From the IMG/VR virus record IMGVR_UViG_3300029337_000249: a stretch of DNA of 64,000 bases; one strand, 5' to 3'. Position 1 is the first letter of the stretch. Every line of letters begins with the position of its first letter. The position numbers and the translations under genes are program-made. Shown here piece by piece: positions 31,490-41,203 of this stretch. A model generated the notes under the pieces. It was not told where the DNA came from and made no database searches. It was given only the letters and a program-made list of their open reading frames with translations. Source of the stretch: a virus.

Positions 31490-31523
31490 TGCTCATGCGG
31501 GATATTTTTATGGGAGGAACACT

Positions 31524-32138
31524 ATGTCGAAGAAAAGCAATAAGGTCAAATTTGGCCTGAAAAACTGCCATTATGCAAAGGCAACCTTTGACGAAGATGG
31601 CAGTGTCACCTATACAAAGCCGGTCCGCATCCCCGGTGCAGTCAGCCTGTCGATGGATGCCAACGGCGAGATCGAGCCGTTCTATGCGGACAATATCGCC
31701 TACTATGTCGTGAATAACAACTCCGGCTATGAGGGCGATCTGGAGATCGCGCTGATTCCGGAGAGCTTCCTCACGGACATCATGCACGAGGAGCTGGATG
31801 GCAACGGCGTGCTTGCTGAGAACGCCAACGTGGAACTGGAGCATTTCGCATTCCTGTTTGAGTTCGATGGCGACCAGCGCCACATCCGTCATGTGCTGTA
31901 CAACTGTGTGGCAAGCCGTCCGTCCATCGAGGGTGAGACCAACGAGGACAGCAAGGAAGTCAAGACGGACACCCTGAACCTGCAGGCAACCCCTCTGGCA
32001 AACGGTTATGTCAAGGCCAAGACCGGTACCAACACCACCGATGATGTCTATAACAAGTGGTACGATGCGGTCTATGAGCCGCAGGCAGAAGCTGTGGACA
32101 CCGAAGATACCAGTCACACCGAGGAGCCGCAGGGCTAA
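31524..32138 (+). CDS. major tail protein (phi13/TP901-like)
   Basis: N-terminal KVKFGLKNCHYAKA pattern and size typical of siphovirus major tail proteins; followed by stem-loop. Confidence 0.8.
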   Translation: MSKKSNKVKFGLKNCHYAKATFDEDGSVTYTKPVRIPGAVSLSMDANGEIEPFYADNIAYYVVNNNSGYEGDLEIALIPESFLTDIMHEELDGNGVLAENANVELEHFAFLFEFDGDQRHIRHVLYNCVASRPSIEGETNEDSKEVKTDTLNLQATPLANGYVKAKTGTNTTDDVYNKWYDAVYEPQAEAVDTEDTSHTEEPQG

Positions 32139-32154
32139 GTGACCGGCACACACC

Positions 32155-32172
32155 GCAGGGCTTTGGCTCTGC
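32155..32172 (+). other. stem-loop GCAGGGC-uuug-GCUCUGC after major tail gene; paralog at 33041-33060 (GGCAGGGC-uucg-GCUCUGCC)
   Basis: Duplicated ~55-bp hairpin+RBS intergenic sequence flanks the SPFH gene on both sides. Confidence 0.5.
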
Positions 32173-32200
32173 TTACATTATTATAAAGAGGTATACGATT

Positions 32201-33028
32201 ATGAAGAAGATTTTTCCTTTGTTCGCAGTGATCATCGTTCTGGTGCTGGCTATCTGTTCGTTCCACATCATTCCCACCGGCTACACCGGCGTGAAGACCA
32301 GCTTTGGTCAGATCCAGGAGACCACCATCCAGAGCGGCAAGCTCAACTTCTGCATTCCTTTTGTGCAGAGCATCCATAAGGTCAACAACAAGCAGCAGGA
32401 TAAGCATATCGAGGCGCAGGTCTGGGGCGAAGCCTCCGACAAGACTCCTGTGTATGCCGCTGATGTCATCGTGACCTATCAGGTGCTTCCTGAAAAGAGC
32501 GCATGGCTGTATGCGAATGTGTCCGACATCAAGAATCTGGTCGGTGATGAGTTGGTGGCATCGGCAATCAAGTCTGCGATGGCAGAACTTGGTCCCAATG
32601 AGGTAACCAACCGTACCAAGATCGAGCCTCTGGCACAGCAGAAGCTGGCAGAGTCCCTTGTGCAGAAATATGGTGAGGACGTTGTGTTCGTAAACAAGGT
32701 CGTCGTCAACGACATGAATTTCGAGGATGCCTATAACGAAGCCATCCAGCAGAAGTCCATTGCACAGCAGAATGCAGATAAGCAGAAGATCGAGAATGAA
32801 GCCGCCATTGCCAAGGCAGAAGCGGATAAGCAGGTGGCGATCACCAATGCAGAGGCGGAAGCCCAGAAAACTTCCATTGCCGCAGATGCACAGGCAGAGG
32901 CAAACCGCAAACTGGCAGAAAGCCTGTCCGATACGCTGATCGATTACCAGAAGGTTCAGAAGTGGGATGGAAAGCTGCCCACTGTGAGCGGCGGTAATGC
33001 ACTGGTCAGCATTGACCCGGCAGAGTAA
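32201..33028 (+). CDS. SPFH/band-7 (prohibitin/HflC-like) membrane protein, moron inside tail module
   Basis: N-terminal TM segment (IFPLFAVIIVLVLAICSF) then SPFH domain (GYTGVKTSFGQIQ...VVVNDMNFEDAY) and C-terminal AEA/Q coiled coil. Confidence 0.85.
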   Translation: MKKIFPLFAVIIVLVLAICSFHIIPTGYTGVKTSFGQIQETTIQSGKLNFCIPFVQSIHKVNNKQQDKHIEAQVWGEASDKTPVYAADVIVTYQVLPEKSAWLYANVSDIKNLVGDELVASAIKSAMAELGPNEVTNRTKIEPLAQQKLAESLVQKYGEDVVFVNKVVVNDMNFEDAYNEAIQQKSIAQQNADKQKIENEAAIAKAEADKQVAITNAEAEAQKTSIAADAQAEANRKLAESLSDTLIDYQKVQKWDGKLPTVSGGNALVSIDPAE

Positions 33029-33094
33029 GAAACACGATATACGGCAGGGCTTCGGCTCTGCCAATTTTACATGAAATTTTGGAGGATTACGATT

Positions 33095-33475
33095 ATGGCA
33101 GTTACAAAGAAAATTGAGATCGATGGCAAGGAAGTCACCTTTAAGGCAAGTGCCGCCGTGCCGCGTCTGTACCGCATCAAGTTCGGCCGTGACATTTACA
33201 AAGACCTGCGCCAGCTGGAAAAGAGCGTGGGAGAGAACGATGAGGACAATTCCAACCTCGACCTGTTCAGTCTGGAAATGTTCGAGGACCTGGCATGGCT
33301 GATGGCCCGTCATGCAGACCCGGCAAAGGTGCCGGACAGCCCGGAGGAGTTCCTGGACCAGTTCAACACCTTCTCCATTTATCAGATCCTGCCCCAGCTG
33401 ATCGAACTGTGGGGTCTGAATGTGCAGACCGAGGTGGAATCCAGAAAAAACCTCGCAAAAGTGAGCGGGAAATGA
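33095..33475 (+). CDS. tail assembly chaperone (G-like), 0-frame product
   Basis: Position before tape measure; slippery A_AAA_AAC at 33445-33451 near 3' end. Confidence 0.75.
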   Translation: MAVTKKIEIDGKEVTFKASAAVPRLYRIKFGRDIYKDLRQLEKSVGENDEDNSNLDLFSLEMFEDLAWLMARHADPAKVPDSPEEFLDQFNTFSIYQILPQLIELWGLNVQTEVESRKNLAKVSGK

Positions 33476-33636: not shown

Positions 33637-33700
33637 CAGAATAAAACTCGACGAGCGTGCATATATTAAATGTGAAATAAGCACGCTCGTTTGATTTTAC

Positions 33701-33729
33701 TTGACTACCGTGCTTATTTCGATTACAAT
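33701..33729 (+). promoter_or_regulatory. abiE promoter (-35 TTGACT, 17 nt, -10 TACAAT) embedded in operator repeats (IR ACGAGCGTGC 33651-60 / GCACGCTCGT 33681-90; three AAATAAGCACG half-sites)
   Basis: Consensus-like promoter immediately upstream of AbiEi gene with inverted repeats as expected for autoregulating AbiEi. Confidence 0.55.
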
Positions 33730-33754
33730 ATAAGCACGGAAGGATGGTGATTCT

Positions 33755-34339
33755 ATGAATGAGATGACAAGATTAGTTCAAAATCATGATTACCTTACGC
33801 CGAGAATCGCGGGAAAATCTGGAATTTCAAAATTTAAATTTTACAAATATGTTCGAGAAAACGGATTGGAGCCGGTCAGCCGTGGTGTGTATTCTACGGG
33901 ATCGGATTGGGTCGATGAGTTATATGTGCTTCATAAGAGATGCCCGAATGCTGTTTTTTCACATGATGAGGCCTTTTATTATCATGGTCTGACAGACAGA
34001 GAACCGTTTGTCCACACACTTACCATATACAGCGGTTACAATGCGCATCGACTTATAGCGGATGGAAGTTGTAAAGTATATACGGTAAAACGGGAATTAC
34101 TGGATGTCGGAAAGATCATTGTGAAAGACAACGATGGGAACATGATTCCAATGTATGACTTGGAACGAACGATTTGTGATCTGATGAGAAGCCGGAGCAG
34201 TATTGAAGCACAGGATTTCAATTCCGTTCTGAAGACATATGTTTCCAGAAGAAACAAGGACCTAAATCGACTCATGGAATATGCAAAGCTGTTTCGGGTT
34301 GATAATGTGATCCGCAGATATATGGGGGTATTATTGTAA
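33755..34339 (+). CDS. abiEi: AbiEi antitoxin (type IV TA / abortive infection), transcriptional autorepressor
   Basis: AbiEi_4-type N-terminal wHTH and C-terminal domain; low-GC island; followed by AbiEii gene 2 nt downstream. Confidence 0.8.
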   Translation: MNEMTRLVQNHDYLTPRIAGKSGISKFKFYKYVRENGLEPVSRGVYSTGSDWVDELYVLHKRCPNAVFSHDEAFYYHGLTDREPFVHTLTIYSGYNAHRLIADGSCKVYTVKRELLDVGKIIVKDNDGNMIPMYDLERTICDLMRSRSSIEAQDFNSVLKTYVSRRNKDLNRLMEYAKLFRVDNVIRRYMGVLL

Positions 34340-34340
34340 A

Positions 34341-35180
34341 ATGCAGCTGACACCAGAACAGGTTAAGGGAAGAATTAAGAATGTGGCAAAGGAAAACAAG
34401 GCAGATGCCAGAACGCTCATGCGGATCTATATGATGGAGCGTTTCCTTGAGAGAGTTGCCAGTTCGCAGTACAAAGATAATTTTATCATTAAAGGCGGAA
34501 TGCTGGTGACAGCGATGGTTGGCGTAGCATTGCGGTCCACGATGGATATCGATACGAGCATTAAAAATCAGAATCTGTCGGCAGAAGATGCAAAACGGAT
34601 TGTGGATGAAGTCAAGGATATCAATCTTGGGGATGGAGTGACCTTTGAGGTTAAGGAAGTTTCCAATATCATGGATGAGATGGAGTATCCGGGTATTCGA
34701 TTTACCATGAATGCTGTGATGGGAAAACTCGTTACACCGATGAAGATTGATATATCTACAGGAGATGTTATCACGCCAAGAGCAATCGAGTACAACTATA
34801 AATTGCTCATGGATGACCGTTCCATCAGCCTTTGGTCGTATAATTTGGAAACAATTCTGGCAGAAAAACTTCAGACGGTCCTTGCAAGAGGTCTTTTGAA
34901 TACCCGAATGAGAGACTTCTATGACATCAAGACCCTGCTTTCTATTTACGAGCAGGACATCGATGCTGATGTGCTGAAAAAGGCATTTGAGGCAACCTGT
35001 AAGAAAAGAAGCACCGAAAATCTGAAAGAGGAAGCACCTAAAATTATGGCTGCCGTCAGTGATGACGCACAGTTACATACACTTTGGAAGTCCTACCAGA
35101 AGAAATATCCGTATGCGGCTGATATCAGCTATGAGGATATTATGGAGAGCACAATGCTCTTATGGAGTAAAATTCAATAA
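34341..35180 (+). CDS. abiEii: AbiEii toxin (nucleotidyltransferase, DUF1814 family)
   Basis: Pol-beta-like NTase signature GGMLVTAMVGVALRSTMDIDT and C-terminal AbiEii/AbiGii family blocks. Confidence 0.85.
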   Translation: MQLTPEQVKGRIKNVAKENKADARTLMRIYMMERFLERVASSQYKDNFIIKGGMLVTAMVGVALRSTMDIDTSIKNQNLSAEDAKRIVDEVKDINLGDGVTFEVKEVSNIMDEMEYPGIRFTMNAVMGKLVTPMKIDISTGDVITPRAIEYNYKLLMDDRSISLWSYNLETILAEKLQTVLARGLLNTRMRDFYDIKTLLSIYEQDIDADVLKKAFEATCKKRSTENLKEEAPKIMAAVSDDAQLHTLWKSYQKKYPYAADISYEDIMESTMLLWSKIQ

Positions 35181-35293
35181 TCGGTAGCAACCCCGTTGGA
35201 GAAATCTGACGGGGTATTTTTATACCCATTTTTTAGCCTGTCTGCCCTGTGCAGATGGGCTTTTCTTATGCCTGCGAGGAGGTGGTTACACAA

Positions 35294-38200
35294 ATGGCAT
35301 CCAGAATCCAGGGCATCACCGTTGAGATCGGCGGCGATACCACAAAGCTCTCCAAAGCACTGGAAAGTGTAAACAAATCAATTAAGGGGACGCAGTCCGG
35401 ACTGAAGGATGTCAACAAACTCCTGAAACTGGACCCCTCCAATACAGAACTGGTTGTCCAGAAGCAGAAGATGCTTAAGGATGCCATTGAAGCTACCAAG
35501 GAAAAGCTGGCAACTCTGAAGACTGCCGCACAGCAGGCCAATGAGCAGCTTGCCAATGGTGAGATCACCCAGCAGCAGTATGATGCTCTTCAGCGTGAGA
35601 TCGTGGGGACCGAACAGAATCTGCGATCCTTACAGGATCAGGCGGCTACTACCAATGCGACTCTTGCCAAAATCGATGAAGCCGGAGAAAAGCTCCAGAA
35701 CATAGGATCTTCTGTGGAAAATGTCGGCAAGAAGTTCCTGCCGGTGACTGCCGCTGTAACGGGGCTTGGCACTGCCGCAGTGAAGACGGCAGCAGATTTC
35801 GATTCCGAGATGAGCAAGGTCTCTGCCATTTCCGGTGCAACAGGGGATGACTTTGACCAGCTCCGTGCGAAAGCCCGTGAAATGGGTGCAAAGACCAAGT
35901 TCTCTGCATCCGAGGCAGCTTCGGCGATGGAATACATGGCCATGGCCGGATGGAAAACGGGGGATATGCTGAACGGCATCGAGGGTATCATGAACCTCGC
36001 AGCGGCGTCCGGTGAAGACCTCGCTACAACTTCGGATATCGTAACCGATGCTCTTACTGCTTTCGGCTTATCTGCTGCGGATTCCGGGCATTTTGCAGAT
36101 ATCCTTGCAGCTGCTTCTTCCAATGCGAACACCAATGTCAGCATGATGGGCGAGACGTTCAAGTACTGTGCGCCTATCGCCGGTGCGCTGGGGTTCTCGG
36201 CAGAGGATACCGCAGAGGCTATCGGTCTCATGGCAAACAGTGGTATCAAGGCTTCTCAGGCCGGTACTTCGTTGCGATCCATCATGAACAACCTTGCCGG
36301 TGAAGTGACCTTTGTCGGTGAGAATATTGGCGAGGCCACAATTGCTACCAGTAATGCGGATGGCAGTATGAGAAGCCTGAACGATATCCTCGCAGACTGC
36401 CGTGTGGCTTTCTCCGGTTTGACCGAATCGGAAAAAGCATCCAATGCAGAGGCACTGGTCGGTAAGAATGCGATGTCCGGTTTCCTTGCCCTGATGAATT
36501 CCAGCGAGACGGATATCAACAAACTGCGTGGTGCCATTGAAAACTGCGATGGTGCATCCGAAAGCATGGCAGAGACCATGCAGGACAACTTAAATGGTCA
36601 GCTCACCATCCTGAAATCTCAGCTGGAGGAGCTGGCTATTTCTTTTGGCGATATCCTGATGCCCACCATCCGCAAGATCGTATCTGCCGTGCAACAGTTC
36701 GTGGACAAGCTCAACAGCATGGATGAAAGTACCAGGGAAACGATCATCAAGATCGGACTACTGGCAGCATCCATTGGTCCGCTGCTCATTGTGCTTGGCA
36801 AGACCATATCAACGGTTGGCACAGCAATGCGGGGGGTCAGTTCTCTTGCAAAGGGTGTCCGGCTTCTTATCACCCATGTGGGCAGTGCCAGCGGTGTGTT
36901 CAGCAAGCTGGGTGTGGTTCTGGGTGGTCTGTCCGGCCCGGTCGTAGCAGTGGTGGCGGTCGTCGGTACACTGGTGGCGGCGTTCATGAATCTCTGGAAC
37001 ACCAACGAGGAGTTCCGTACTGCCATTACCGGCATCTGGAACGACATCGTTTCCAAGGTGAAAGGCTTCTGCGACCAGCTGACACAGCGGATCAATGGGT
37101 TGGGCTTTAATTTTAAGGATGTCACTGAGGTACTGAAGGCAGTATGGGATGGTTTCTGTCAGGTGCTTGCACCGCTGTTTGAGGGAGCGTTCCAGAATAT
37201 TGCCACCATCCTAGGTGTCGTTCTGGATACACTGCTCGGTCTATTCGACGTCTTTTCCAATGTGTTCTCCGGCAACTGGAGCGGTGCATGGGAAGCAGTG
37301 AAAGGCATCTTCTCCAGCATCTGGGAAGGTGTGAAGTCCGTATTCTCCACGACTCTTACCGCACTAAAGAGCGCACTGGATGTGTTCCTTGGTCTGTTTG
37401 GTACGGACTGGCAGACGGTCTGGGGCAGTATCAAGAGCTTCTTCGAGACCGTGTGGAGTGGAATCAGCAGCTTCTTTTCAAACACAGTTTCTGCTATCCA
37501 GAGTGTGGCAACGACTGTATTTACAGCAGTGTCTGGATTTTTTACTACCGTCCTTACGAGTATTCAGACGACCTTCAGCACCATCTGGACTGCCATTTCC
37601 ACAGCAGTTTCTTCTGTGCTGAATACGATCCATACCACGGTGACAACTGTGTGGACGGCGATTTCGACCGCAATCTCTACGGTCATGAACACCATCAGCA
37701 CCACGATCACTACAGTGTGGAACGGAATCTACAACACCATGAAACCTCTGCTGGATGCGTTCAAATATCTGTTTGAGACCATCTGGCAGGCAATACAGAT
37801 CCTGATCGGCGCAGCACTGACCGCGATCCAGACGAAGATCACTTCTATCTGGAACGCTATCGTTGCCTTTGTGACTCCGCTGCTGACCAGATTGCAGACG
37901 ACTTTCTCTACGGTTTGGTCGGCAATCCAGACAGCCATCTCCACGGTACTGACAGCAATTCAGACCGCAGTGACAACGGTGTGGAATGCCATTGTATCGT
38001 TCCTGTCTCCGCTGCTGACTGGCATCCAGACCCGGATGAGTACGGCATGGAATGCGATCCAGACGGTCATCTCGACTGTCCTTTCTGCGATCCAGTCCAA
38101 GGTTTCTTCCATCTGGACTGCCATCAGCAGCAAGATCTCCGGTGTGGTAAATGGCATCAAATCGGTGGTTTCTTCCGGCTGGAATGCCATGAAATCCACG

Positions 38201-41200
38201 GTATCGTCCCTCAGTAACAGCATCAAGAGCGCGGCTACCACAGCCTTTAACTCGATGAAATCCGGGATTTCTTCTACGATTTCCGGCATTAAGACCACCA
38301 TCACGAATGGCTTTAACAGTGCGGTCTCCTTTATCAAGGGTCTGGCTGGACAGGCATTTTCGTGGGGCTCTGACATGATCGGCAACATTGTGTCCGGTAT
38401 CCAGTCGAGGATTCAGGATGTGGCAAGTGCCGTATCGGGAGTGGCGGATCGTATCCGTTCCTTCCTGCACTTCTCTGTGCCGGATGAAGGACCTCTGGCA
38501 GATATGGAAAGCTGGATGCCAGACTTTATGCAGGGTCTGGCAAACGGCATCACGACCAACACCAGCCTTGTGACTGCGGCGGCAGAGAACCTGTCCACAA
38601 CGCTGTCTACCTCCATCACCAACTCCATGAGGGGAGTGGAGCAGGCATACAGTAAGAGCTGGGCAGCCATCAGCCAGACGGTGAAGACCGGAACGGCAGG
38701 TGTAAGTGCCGCGATGAGATCCGCATGGAGCTCCATTACGACCAGTACCACGAGCACATGGAACAGCATCAAGACCACCATCCAGACCAGCTTTGCGGCG
38801 GTGAGATCCAATGTGACCTCTGCGACAGCGGTAGTTAAATCTTCCATGACCAGTGCATGGAATGCAGTGAAGTCGCTGACAACGACCAGCTGGAACGGAA
38901 TCAAGAGCGTTATCACTACAGCATGGAACGGAATCAAGTCTCTGACTACTTCTGCGACTGCTTCTGTAAAATCTTCCATGACAAGCGCATGGAACGCAGT
39001 GAAAACTCTGACAAACACCAGCTGGAATGGTATCAAAACAGTCATTACGACAGCATGGAACAGCATCAAGTCTCTTACGACTTCTTCTGTCACAGCTGTC
39101 CGCAGTACGGTCACGAGCAGCTGGAATTCCCTGAAATCCACCACGACCTCTGCTTTCAACGGCATCAAGTCCACGGTGTCTTCGGCAATGTCCAGCCTGC
39201 GCAGCACGGTTTCTTCTGGTGTCGCAAGTATCAGGAGCAGCTTTAACTCGCTCGGTTCGATTGCTTCTTCGGCATACCGCTGGGGTGCAGATATCTGTTC
39301 CCAGATGGCGGCAGGTGTCCGGGCAGCGGCTAGTTCCGTGATCGCAGCGGCAGAAAATGTCGCAAGCAGGGTTAGAAGTCTGTTGCATTTCTCTGTACCA
39401 GACGAAGGTCCTCTGTCCGATGCAGATACCTATATGCCCGACTTCATGAAGCTGCTGGCAACCGGCATTAAGAAAAATGTCAAGTCGGTGGTGAAAGCCG
39501 TGCAGGGACTTGCTGGGTCTATGAGCAGCAACCTCACGACCCCGGTAGATTCTCTGGGCGACTGGATGGATTCCGTGGTCGGCAGTTTTGCCACCACGAT
39601 CAAGAAAAGTCAGAGCGGTATCGGTAGTGCTGCAAGGGATGTGGGCAGCGGTATCCAGTCCCAGTTGATGTCCGGGCTTTCCGGTCTGAAAACACAGTTC
39701 CAGCAGCTCTGGACTGACCTGCAGGGTATCACCAAAACCGCAGTCGGTGGCATGAGCGATGAAGTGAAGCAGGGTTTTGCGGATATGAAGGATTCCATTG
39801 GTGAGCTGAGCTCTCAGACCAGTTCCCTTGGGAATGCGATCCGTAGCCTTGGCGATACCTTCAACTCGGATTTCCTAAAGAGCCTGGGCAACGGCATCAG
39901 CAAGGTCGGTGACACGGTCAATACGGTCACGGGGCTTGTGGACAAGCTCGGTTCCATGAAGAACACCATTGGAAACCTTGGAAGTACGATGCAGAACCTC
40001 GGCAATGTTCTCGGCACAGAGAACGGCGGCGGTCTGCTGTCCAACATCGGCAGTTTCCTGTCGAAAATCGGCAGTGCAGATGGCGGTCAGATTGTGTCGA
40101 ACTTTGGCAACCTGATCTCTGGGTTGACTTCCAAGATGGGCGGTCTCGGAGAAGGCATCACTGGCATTATCTCGAAGCTGGGAAGCCTTAGCTCCAGCGG
40201 TGGGGGAATCCTGTCGAATCTGGGCGGACTGCTTTCCGGTGTGGTATCGAAGATCGGTGGTTTAGGCGGCAGTCTTTCCGGGCTTCTGTCTGGTGTGGGT
40301 TCCACATTGGGCGGAATTGCTGGTTCTGCCGGCTCCGCAATCGCAGGACTGTTCGGTTCGGTTGGCACGACTGTATCCAGTCTGGCTGCTGGTGCGGGAT
40401 CGGCTTTGGCTGGTATCGCTTCCTCGGCTGGAGGCGTGCTTGCTTCGGCAGGCACAGCACTGGCCGGTCTGGCCGGTCCTGCGGGTATCGCAGTGGCAGC
40501 AGTCGGCGGCATCGGTCTGGGACTGACCGCTCTCTGGAAAAACTGCGATGGCTTCCGGGAGGGTGTGACGAATATTTGGAACAAGGTCACTTCTGTATTC
40601 ACGAACGGTGTCAATGCCATCAAGAACGGAATCTCCAATGCGGCATCTGCCATCGGCAATGTGGCATCGTCCATCTGGGGCAGTATCAAGAATGTGGCTT
40701 CCTCGGCGGTCAGCTGGGGCAAAGACATCGTTGGCGGTATCGCCGGAGGTATCAAAAAGGGCGTCAGCTGGGTCGGCAATGCGGTCAAGAGTGTGGCAAG
40801 CGGTATCCGCTCGTTCCTGCACTTCTCGGTACCGGATGAAGGACCTCTGGCAGATGCGGACACCTATATGCCGGACTTCATGAAGCTGCTTTCCGGCGGC
40901 ATCAAGAAAGGAGAAGGCAGTCTGATCAGCCAGATCAAGTCGATGGCAGCAAAGGTACAGCAGGGCATGGAGGGCATCAGCTCTTTCAGTCTGCCGGAAC
41001 TGACCCTGCCGCACTTCGATGGCTCTGGCTGGAACTTCCCGCGGGCAGCTCTGGCCGGAGGCGGTACCACCCGGACGACCAACCTTGGCGGTGTGTATAT
41101 CACGGTCAATGGCTATAACGCCCGGAACGATGATGAACTGGCACAGACCGTTGCCGATAAGATCAACGGCATGATCCACGAGGATGATTCAGTCTTCAAG

Positions 41201-41203
41201 TAA
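35294..41203 (+). CDS. tail tape measure protein (1970 aa)
   Basis: N-terminal TP901-family TMP core, long periodic W/A-rich helical repeats (TxWNAIxT), three copies of a conserved module ...RxRSFLHFSVPDEGPLADxxxxMPDFM... Confidence 0.9.
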   Translation: MASRIQGITVEIGGDTTKLSKALESVNKSIKGTQSGLKDVNKLLKLDPSNTELVVQKQKMLKDAIEATKEKLATLKTAAQQANEQLANGEITQQQYDALQREIVGTEQNLRSLQDQAATTNATLAKIDEAGEKLQNIGSSVENVGKKFLPVTAAVTGLGTAAVKTAADFDSEMSKVSAISGATGDDFDQLRAKAREMGAKTKFSASEAASAMEYMAMAGWKTGDMLNGIEGIMNLAAASGEDLATTSDIVTDALTAFGLSAADSGHFADILAAASSNANTNVSMMGETFKYCAPIAGALGFSAEDTAEAIGLMANSGIKASQAGTSLRSIMNNLAGEVTFVGENIGEATIATSNADGSMRSLNDILADCRVAFSGLTESEKASNAEALVGKNAMSGFLALMNSSETDINKLRGAIENCDGASESMAETMQDNLNGQLTILKSQLEELAISFGDILMPTIRKIVSAVQQFVDKLNSMDESTRETIIKIGLLAASIGPLLIVLGKTISTVGTAMRGVSSLAKGVRLLITHVGSASGVFSKLGVVLGGLSGPVVAVVAVVGTLVAAFMNLWNTNEEFRTAITGIWNDIVSKVKGFCDQLTQRINGLGFNFKDVTEVLKAVWDGFCQVLAPLFEGAFQNIATILGVVLDTLLGLFDVFSNVFSGNWSGAWEAVKGIFSSIWEGVKSVFSTTLTALKSALDVFLGLFGTDWQTVWGSIKSFFETVWSGISSFFSNTVSAIQSVATTVFTAVSGFFTTVLTSIQTTFSTIWTAISTAVSSVLNTIHTTVTTVWTAISTAISTVMNTISTTITTVWNGIYNTMKPLLDAFKYLFETIWQAIQILIGAALTAIQTKITSIWNAIVAFVTPLLTRLQTTFSTVWSAIQTAISTVLTAIQTAVTTVWNAIVSFLSPLLTGIQTRMSTAWNAIQTVISTVLSAIQSKVSSIWTAISSKISGVVNGIKSVVSSGWNAMKSTVSSLSNSIKSAATTAFNSMKSGISSTISGIKTTITNGFNSAVSFIKGLAGQAFSWGSDMIGNIVSGIQSRIQDVASAVSGVADRIRSFLHFSVPDEGPLADMESWMPDFMQGLANGITTNTSLVTAAAENLSTTLSTSITNSMRGVEQAYSKSWAAISQTVKTGTAGVSAAMRSAWSSITTSTTSTWNSIKTTIQTSFAAVRSNVTSATAVVKSSMTSAWNAVKSLTTTSWNGIKSVITTAWNGIKSLTTSATASVKSSMTSAWNAVKTLTNTSWNGIKTVITTAWNSIKSLTTSSVTAVRSTVTSSWNSLKSTTTSAFNGIKSTVSSAMSSLRSTVSSGVASIRSSFNSLGSIASSAYRWGADICSQMAAGVRAAASSVIAAAENVASRVRSLLHFSVPDEGPLSDADTYMPDFMKLLATGIKKNVKSVVKAVQGLAGSMSSNLTTPVDSLGDWMDSVVGSFATTIKKSQSGIGSAARDVGSGIQSQLMSGLSGLKTQFQQLWTDLQGITKTAVGGMSDEVKQGFADMKDSIGELSSQTSSLGNAIRSLGDTFNSDFLKSLGNGISKVGDTVNTVTGLVDKLGSMKNTIGNLGSTMQNLGNVLGTENGGGLLSNIGSFLSKIGSADGGQIVSNFGNLISGLTSKMGGLGEGITGIISKLGSLSSSGGGILSNLGGLLSGVVSKIGGLGGSLSGLLSGVGSTLGGIAGSAGSAIAGLFGSVGTTVSSLAAGAGSALAGIASSAGGVLASAGTALAGLAGPAGIAVAAVGGIGLGLTALWKNCDGFREGVTNIWNKVTSVFTNGVNAIKNGISNAASAIGNVASSIWGSIKNVASSAVSWGKDIVGGIAGGIKKGVSWVGNAVKSVASGIRSFLHFSVPDEGPLADADTYMPDFMKLLSGGIKKGEGSLISQIKSMAAKVQQGMEGISSFSLPELTLPHFDGSGWNFPRAALAGGGTTRTTNLGGVYITVNGYNARNDDELAQTVADKINGMIHEDDSVFK

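Follow-up and report, generated by a model that had tools for sequence, protein, structure and literature searches.

Many phages and giant viruses code for proteins of the SPFH/Band-7 type, and no viral member has a known function. A report of 2006 had placed SPFH genes in T4-like phages (PMC1524935), and a paper of 2026 still called the reason for the presence of such genes in phages unclear (PMC13239085). A described case of an extra membrane protein gene in the tail operon of a siphophage is gene 15 of HK97 (Juhala et al. 2000; Cumby et al. 2012; both summarised in PMC3594210), a moron placed between the chaperone and the tape measure genes, which has its own promoter and terminator, a deviant GC content and expression from the prophage. 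Here, we describe an SPFH/Band-7 membrane protein gene (32201..33028, plus strand, 275 amino acids) in a stretch of viral DNA of 64,000 nucleotides, the IMG/VR record IMGVR_UViG_3300029337_000249 (the window). The gene lies within the segment 32139-33094, which comprises exactly the bases that separate the stop codon of the gene for the major tail (tube) protein from the ATG of the tail assembly chaperone gene. The explanation that we favor, and think probable as a whole, is an accessory late gene of the tail operon, acquired in a single insertion that duplicated the intergenic spacer and coding for a putative membrane SPFH cage in the service of lytic growth. Its evolutionary part, drawn from sequence comparisons, may be regarded as firm, whereas any specific target that one might name for the protein is unlikely at best to be the right one.

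A search of genomes, with one genome per species, returned 80 loci. In all 64 SPFH-less loci in which both genes were found, the tail protein gene was followed directly by the chaperone gene, in agreement with a preliminary description of the window, made from the sequence alone, that had placed the SPFH gene as an insertion between the two. The tail proteins of these loci are 60-68% identical to that of the window (78% in one of them, L157), and their hosts include many Clostridia, a member of the Erysipelotrichaceae and Listeria costaricensis. In an SPFH-less subclade with 60-63% tail protein identity, the spacer between the two genes contains GGGCAGGGCTTCGGCTCTGCCC followed by a ribosome-binding site (RBS), that is, a single copy of the hairpin core found in the window; the other SPFH-less subclades have no spacer at this place. 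The hairpin thus predates the insert, and its single-copy presence in relatives upholds the earlier proposal that the SPFH gene was acquired at the stem-loop between the tail protein and chaperone genes.

In the window, this arrangement is present twice. The left hairpin (32155..32172, plus strand; GCAGGGC-TTTG-GCTCTGC) has a 7-bp stem with one G-U pair and a local folding energy of -12.3 kcal/mol, and its loop reads TTCG in most relatives. It is followed by the left spacer (32173..32200, plus strand) with TTACAT at 32173-32178, the RBS GAGG at 32188-32191 and TACGATT before the ATG of the SPFH gene. The right hairpin (33043..33062, plus strand; GGCAGGGC-TTCG-GCTCTGCC) has an 8-bp stem, a UUCG tetraloop, a T-rich tail and a local folding energy of -15.7 kcal/mol, and the right spacer (33063..33094, plus strand) repeats TTACAT at 33067-33072, an RBS (GGAGG, 33081-33085) and, ahead of the chaperone ATG, TACGATT. 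Positions 32152-32172 and 33041-33061 are 90% identical over 21 nt, and a direct repeat (32173-32203 and 33067-33097; 71% identity over 31 nt) continues the likeness after an offset of a 5-nt indel. The identity of the two spacers, measured from hairpin to ATG, is 75%, whereas 300 shuffles gave a mean of 38% and at most 64%. The 18-mer GCAGGGCTTYGGCTCTGC has two occurrences in the 64 kb and no more; at up to three mismatches, 0.12 occurrences are expected, and none of 100 shuffles had two. These comparisons bear out the view that the flanks of the gene are paralogous.

The likeness of the flanks might also have arisen through convergence of a terminator-like hairpin and a strong RBS on both sides, with no common descent. 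GC-rich hairpins with a UUCG loop and GGAGG-type RBSs are generic motifs, and the left and right hairpins of one relative (L141) differ from each other in sequence. We nevertheless consider convergence highly improbable, since the identity extends beyond these motifs to TTACAT and to the TACGATT before the ATG and exceeds that of shuffled spacers, the 18-mer is found nowhere else in the window, and the likeness is lineage-specific, with the two spacers of L159 resembling each other and not those of the window. The variants with an empty site, described below, are moreover exactly those that recombination between two copies would give.

The layout of hairpin, TACAT, RBS and ATG was found on both sides of the gene in every SPFH-bearing lineage. 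The sequence of the hairpin differs between lineages, yet all 29 variants fold, with energies between -9.6 and -23.5 kcal/mol. When 28 variants were aligned, 85% of the cells of the named 10-bp stem were paired, as opposed to 37-57% with a slid partner. Compensatory changes on both sides were seen in five of the ten stem pairs (for example, A-U to G-C in L079), and the covariation score of the stem exceeded those of all 500 shuffles, a measure that can be inflated by the relatedness of the sequences. The intergenic hairpin is, on this comparative evidence, a conserved structure. The left region of 81 nt, taken as a whole, was no more stable than its shuffles (z -0.66), and it is the local hairpin alone that is supported there. 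A third CGCAGGGCT lies in the last codons of the tail protein gene, the copies being at 32126-32134 and 32153-32161, and the minimum-energy fold of the left spacer has the hairpin's 3' arm paired with this upstream CAGGGCT copy at the end of the tail protein gene, in place of the adjacent copy. Such pairing with the upstream CGCAGGGCT copy is a possible alternative structure.

The resemblance of the two spacers has been renewed since the insertion. The left and right spacers of L159 share 90% identity, as against only 59-70% with the right spacers of other lineages. In the clade of the window, left and right spacers alike end in TACGATTATG, which occurs in no other lineage, and the left spacer of L080 carries the TACATGAAA form that is otherwise typical of right spacers. 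Likeness of the spacers within lineages, combined with a single gain of the gene, requires gene conversion or repeated recombination between them; the two copies have been partly homogenized within lineages and evolve together. That the slot is recombinationally active is also indicated by the entry of a homing endonuclease-like gene into the right spacer: in L155 (5520-6215) and at the same place in L079, an open reading frame of 231 amino acids with HNH_3 and AP2 domains occupies the gap between the right hairpin and the chaperone gene, where it takes over the original RBS of the chaperone gene and supplies that gene with a new one.

The carriage of the gene among close relatives was followed in IMG/VR, where a search with the tail protein gave at least 215 loci. 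In the best 80 of them, the tail protein is 88-100% identical to that of the window, and the counts cover the 75 of these 80 loci that have both flanking genes. The SPFH gene is intact in 67 of the 75 (89%), disrupted in six and absent from two; as judged by this count, it is close to uniformly carried within the clade. The disrupted copies have a large 3' deletion (L027), internal deletions (L038, L044, L059) or frameshifts (L004, L066). Diverged orthologues, with 72-85% protein identity, occupy the same place. The two empty sites (L007 and L016) consist of the left flank of the left copy, one hybrid hairpin and then the right spacer, which is the product expected from recombination between the hairpins. 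The comparison with prophages lacking the insert that the preliminary description had suggested thus gave clean empty sites, though as secondary losses; their reading as the ancestral state was rejected, L007 being nested next to the window with a tail protein 100% identical to the one found there.

In a neighbor-joining tree of four concatenated tail proteins, the SPFH-bearing loci form one clade, its sister L157 and all outgroups lack the gene, and L007, without the gene, is nested beside the window. Because the SPFH-bearing phages form one clade, the gene was gained once, and the history is best read as one gain followed by vertical inheritance and rare secondary loss. A megablast search of 50,697 phage records with the gene and its surroundings (5.2 kb) returned only a 193-bp fragment and no annotated close relative in that set.

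Two side observations concern these relatives. The prophage tail regions of Blautia faecis DFI.3.66 and Faecalibacterium intestinale CLA-AA-H281 are 98.7% identical over 14.6 kb, and the two hosts belong to different orders (Lachnospirales and Oscillospirales, respectively); tail regions 93-95% identical to that of the window were found in Clostridium fessum and other Blautia (also L150, L151, L153-L155 and L160). This likeness across orders would point either to an unusually broad host range or to carriage on another mobile element. Separately, a predicted protein of 334 amino acids from a 12-kb metagenome contig (P0101) has approximately the first 100 residues of a ClpP-type prohead protease fused to the SPFH protein from about residue 47 onwards, a fusion most simply explained if a presumably decaying prophage had lost its head and neck genes by deletion.

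The product of the gene can be compared with three described groups of SPFH proteins. By its match to PHROG 200 (4.9e-39, residues 1-266), it joins the known set of functionally uncharacterized phage SPFH proteins, with which it shares the family and the domain order at only 23-43% identity; members of the set are annotated as 'band 7 protein', 'prohibitin family protein', 'band-7-like membrane protein' or 'lipoprotein'. The Pfam model Band_7 (PF01145) matched residues 23-209 with an E-value of 3.3e-17 (63.5 bits against a cut-off of 23.6). An AlphaFold2 model of the monomer, built from 35 homologues of 41-97% identity, had a mean predicted local distance difference test score (pLDDT) of 75 and contained a helix (4-19), an alpha/beta domain (21-173) and a single helix (175-241). 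The parts assigned to the protein are a membrane helix at approximately 4-24, the SPFH domain at 21-173, the long helix at 175-241 and a C-terminal KWDGKLP motif. In a Foldseek comparison with the PDB, the best 50 matches listed were all of the SPFH family, with top E-values of 1e-15 to 1e-11, and included prohibitin, erlin, HflK/C, stomatin, QmcA, flotillin and the major vault protein; many phage and giant-virus SPFH models matched as well. The prohibitin/HflC-like architecture of membrane anchor, SPFH domain and coiled coil claimed at first sight is thus confirmed by the Pfam match, the model and Foldseek, and an SPFH fold is predicted.

Residues 6-24 are the sole strongly hydrophobic segment (mean Kyte-Doolittle value of 2.77 for a 19-mer; 0.87 for the runner-up). 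The predicted membrane helix has a charge of +2 in its N-terminal flank and +1 in its C-terminal flank, a difference that suggests an N-in/C-out topology. The C-terminal motif, conserved as KWDGxLP, is compatible with an SPFH ring or cage, of which it is no proof. The protein is predicted to be membrane-anchored and of the type that forms cages. The label 'lipoprotein' from PHROG 200 was rejected: the sequence L-A-I-C20 departs from the lipobox [LVI][ASTVI][GAS]C by an isoleucine at position -1, and Cys20 is not conserved, being replaced by serine in two orthologues (P0102 and P0114). Besides the gene itself, tblastn of the protein against the whole window detected no second SPFH gene.

HflK, HflC and the prohibitins share with the window protein the N-terminal membrane anchor, the SPFH domain, the long helix and the C-terminal segment, and they are its best solved matches, with E-values of approximately 1e-5 by sequence and 1e-14 by fold. 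An HflK/C-like modulator of the host protease FtsH, tuning lysogeny factors or other FtsH substrates, might therefore be considered, the more so as the N-terminal 66 residues align weakly to the N-terminus of HflC and the topology guess agrees with that of HflK/C, which is N-in/C-out. Orthology with HflC was, however, rejected, the equivalog models NF008259 and TIGR01932 giving 29.4 and 21.9 bits against cut-offs of 427 and 134. HflC has 334 amino acids, as against 275 in the window protein, and HflK/HflC form a heteromeric pair, whereas the window has a single gene. The fold is also common to stomatin, erlin, flotillin and QmcA, none of which is known to regulate FtsH. A place in the late tail operon would put synthesis after the lysis-lysogeny decision, and homologues outside the clade, among them that of a T7-family phage, also occur in replication modules. 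Nothing in this phage is, to our knowledge, an FtsH substrate. The FtsH and lysogeny reading, put forward in the preliminary description, is thus unsupported and rather disfavored, and we rate it as distinctly unlikely.

The third described group, the SPFH-NfeD operons (QmcA-YbbJ; Pyrococcus stomatin PH1511 with the protease PH1510), has the SPFH membrane protein in common with the window, and QmcA is a detectable relative. No NfeD-family gene lies next to the SPFH gene, its neighbors being the tail tube and chaperone genes, neither of which matches NfeD. A pairing with the ClpP-type prohead protease was rejected, since the match of that protease to the NfeD1b protease domain (22 bits, cut-off 40) is sub-threshold and reflects clan-level likeness. 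SPFH-less relatives generally have a ClpP-type prohead protease as well, so no functional pairing of protease and SPFH protein is implied.

The composition and the divergence of the gene point to a long residence in the module. The GC content and that of third codon positions (GC3) are 0.522 and 0.667 for the SPFH gene, 0.545 and 0.717 for the tail protein gene and 0.535 and 0.709 for the chaperone gene. Against orthologues of rising divergence, the ratio of nonsynonymous to synonymous substitution rates (dN/dS) is 0.05-0.15; the flanking structural genes fall in the same range, with similar dS. Higher values were given by a decaying prophage (L144, 0.25) and by a poorly aligned segment of L158 (0.40). 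Native GC and GC3 together with purifying selection indicate that the gene is functional, old and co-inherited with the module, and it is best described as an old, domesticated insertion.

Conservation of this kind might be expected of a structural or assembly component of the tail, and the gene does keep its position, has diverged in step with the tail genes, with purifying selection on it just as strong, and is intact in nearly nine-tenths of the close relatives. However, the SPFH-less sister lineage and outgroups keep homologous genes for the terminator (55-78%), the tube (60-78%), G/GT (54-76%) and the tape measure (40-75%), and deletion, truncation, frameshift or absence of the SPFH gene occurs naturally in eight of the 75 relatives. 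Since the outgroups and the natural knock-outs do without it, the protein is not needed to build such tails. It also has a strongly hydrophobic N-terminal anchor and belongs to a family of membrane scaffolds, and we know of no SPFH-family member that is a component of a phage virion. We would therefore give a tail component very little credence. Uniform carriage as a conserved structural part, the outcome against which the preliminary description had set its own proposal, was found in its first half, carriage being near-uniform within the clade, and not in its second.

The HK97 gene mentioned above offers a closer comparison. In both phages, an extra membrane protein gene stands in a siphophage tail operon between genes that are adjacent in relatives; the SPFH gene differs in lying one slot upstream, in its native composition and in having no promoter-like site. 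Among the marks of a moron (Juhala 2000; PMC3594210), it shows the extra DNA between genes adjacent in relatives, whereas deviant GC and, in a sigma-70 consensus scan, a promoter of its own were not found. The name moron, given to it in the preliminary description, therefore holds for the extra DNA relative to related phages and not for a recent or classical acquisition, given the single basal gain, the native GC and the missing promoter-like site.

The slot of HK97 gene 15, between the G/GT chaperone and tape measure genes, is occupied in the window by an AbiE toxin-antitoxin (abortive infection) cassette (33685-35231; AbiEi 33755-34339, AbiEii 34341-35180), approximately 700 bp downstream of the SPFH gene. 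The two genes had PADLOC scores of 8e-63 (AbiEi) and 1e-98 (AbiEii), GC of 0.405-0.426 (10-13 points below the tail genes) and GC3 of 0.405-0.486. The cassette has its own promoter match (10/12, 33701-33729) and terminator (35190-35215), and it is exactly at 33684/35232 that the alignment to relatives breaks off. Other relatives have Abi_2, RelB/YoeB, DUF3990/DUF3791 or nothing in this slot. In this position, that of HK97 gene 15, the AbiE cassette makes a textbook moron. Two imperfect palindromes/direct repeats on CGTGC(A/T)TAT...ATAAGCACG at 33642-33742 overlap its promoter-like site and look like operator sites for a putative autoregulation by AbiEi, a mode of control known for AbiEi.

By analogy with HK97 gp15, the SPFH gene could act in classical lysogenic conversion, being expressed from the repressed prophage and serving superinfection exclusion. 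It codes for a membrane protein and separates two tail genes that relatives have side by side, the next slot corresponds to that of HK97 gp15 (PMC3594210) and holds AbiE, Abi_2 and RelB/YoeB in the clade, and an SPFH domain predicted to be extracytoplasmic could face incoming tails. On the other hand, the neighboring AbiE cassette has the promoter match and the terminator and the GC 10-13 points lower, while the SPFH gene has no promoter-like site and is tail-like in GC and GC3. The SPFH protein matched no defense family in PADLOC-DB 2.0 at E-values up to 0.01, and no link of SPFH proteins to exclusion or defense was found in the literature; papers combining SPFH with phage, prophage, anti-phage or defense gave annotation-level mentions and no functional study. 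Homologues are also found in phages not known to be temperate, including a T7-family phage, for which lysogenic conversion would be meaningless. We thus see lysogenic conversion as an unlikely role of this gene.

The wider set of homologues is instructive in this respect. With tblastn, homologues of the SPFH protein were detected in 21 phage records. In all five annotated phages that were checked (Toutatis, Lelie, phiFN37, Skarpretter and the T7-family phage ProddE; loci L145, L146, L232, L233 and L234), the SPFH gene lies in the early/replication module, among genes for primase/helicase, DNA polymerase, dUTPase and methylase. Toutatis and Lelie are close relatives of each other, and all five phages are outside the clade of the window. 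The recurring association with replication genes may hint at a general role of phage SPFH proteins. In MT835486, the homologue follows the endolysin genes, and further homologues were found on contigs of 175-200 kb with phage-like genes and on a bacterial chromosome. Compared with the annotated phage SPFH genes that were checked, the window gene is unusual in its place inside the tail operon and in the duplicated spacers that bracket it. The presence of SPFH genes in T4-like and T7-family phages, which we take to be virulent, favors a service to lytic growth over lysogenic conversion.

For the expression of the gene, a sigma-70 consensus scan of the plus strand from 31500 to 33065 showed no promoter-like site ahead of it. 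The candidate TTTACA-16-TACGAT at 33066-33093 was rejected as a promoter of the chaperone gene, with whose RBS and ATG it overlaps. The right hairpin was flagged as terminator-like by a consensus scan and is a copy of the module's own intergenic hairpin. With no promoter-like site of its own and a leaky terminator-like hairpin ahead of it, the SPFH gene would be transcribed late with the tail genes, behind the leaky stem-loop, which we think is probably the case.

The favored account can then be set out as follows. As the comparisons show, the ancestral module comprised the tail tube gene and, after it, the conserved stem-loop, the RBS and the gene for the chaperone. The SPFH frame was placed into this spacer in one lineage, in such a way that hairpin, TTACAT, RBS and ATG context came to stand on both sides. 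Afterwards, the gene has been inherited with the module under purifying selection, now and then being lost through recombination between the hairpins or decaying. The amount of SPFH protein made would be lower than that of the tube protein and similar to that of the chaperone. By its N-terminal helix, the protein would enter the host cytoplasmic membrane, and it would probably oligomerize via the long helix and the conserved C-terminus into a ring or cage that acts on a host membrane component. Its role, as a guess, would be a service in the lytic phase, such as control of the membrane or of a protease until lysis or exclusion of a second phage; control of lysogeny and a place in the virion structure are less likely.

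Several points weigh against this account. Its functional half is an inference. The neighbor-joining tree was made from tblastn segments and has no support values. The C-terminus of the model is of low confidence, with pLDDT below 50 from residue 253, and the proposed topology hangs solely on the charge difference of +2 versus +1. The promoter scan, which used the sigma-70 consensus, could miss a promoter specific to Clostridia or to phages, and the left hairpin has a poor T-tract and is accordingly weak as a terminator.

A more adventurous version would make the twin repeats the borders of an SPFH cassette that can be precisely excised and re-inserted, and at the same time the means of a stepwise attenuation of expression (tube above SPFH above chaperone), with an extracytoplasmic cage that blocks membrane penetration or DNA entry by the tails of related phages. 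We consider it a quite unlikely proposal; if true, it would be the first demonstrated function of a virus-encoded SPFH protein and would link superinfection exclusion to tail genes.

The prophage lineage that carries the SPFH gene is among the most prevalent in the human gut, with protein clusters of thousands of members. Cultured carriers (Blautia faecis DFI.3.66, Faecalibacterium intestinale CLA-AA-H281 and Clostridium fessum SNUG30386) are available for comparison, as are natural knock-outs and a natural clean deletion. The locus is a clear worked example of the entry of a gene into a tightly packed structural operon by duplication of a regulatory spacer, after which the two spacer copies evolve together and allow the gene to be lost precisely. 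The case is of an ordinary kind, with tidy details, and it refines current understanding without changing it.

The genes around the insertion are those of a siphophage tail module. The major tail (tube) protein gene (31524..32138, plus strand) matched PHROG 88 (6.9e-59) and the Pfam model L_lac_phage_MSP (8e-08). The tail assembly chaperone G (33095-33475, plus strand) matched PHROG 709 (1.5e-39), and its -1 frameshift extension T, which reaches to 33636 on the plus strand, matched PHROG 3033 (4e-23). A slippery heptamer (A AAA AAC) lies at 33445-33451, near the end of the chaperone gene, and the -1 frame is open to 33636; G/GT orthologues of 126 and 54 amino acids occupy the same position in relatives. 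The layout is, to judge by these signals, the conserved and usual one of a G/GT programmed -1 frameshift. Further downstream, the tape measure gene (35249-41203) codes for 1984 amino acids. Its translation includes three copies of a segment of approximately 35 amino acids, R(I/V)RS(F/L)LHFSVPDEGPL(A/S)D...(W/Y)MPDFM, as well as long runs of short repeats rich in T, S and A.

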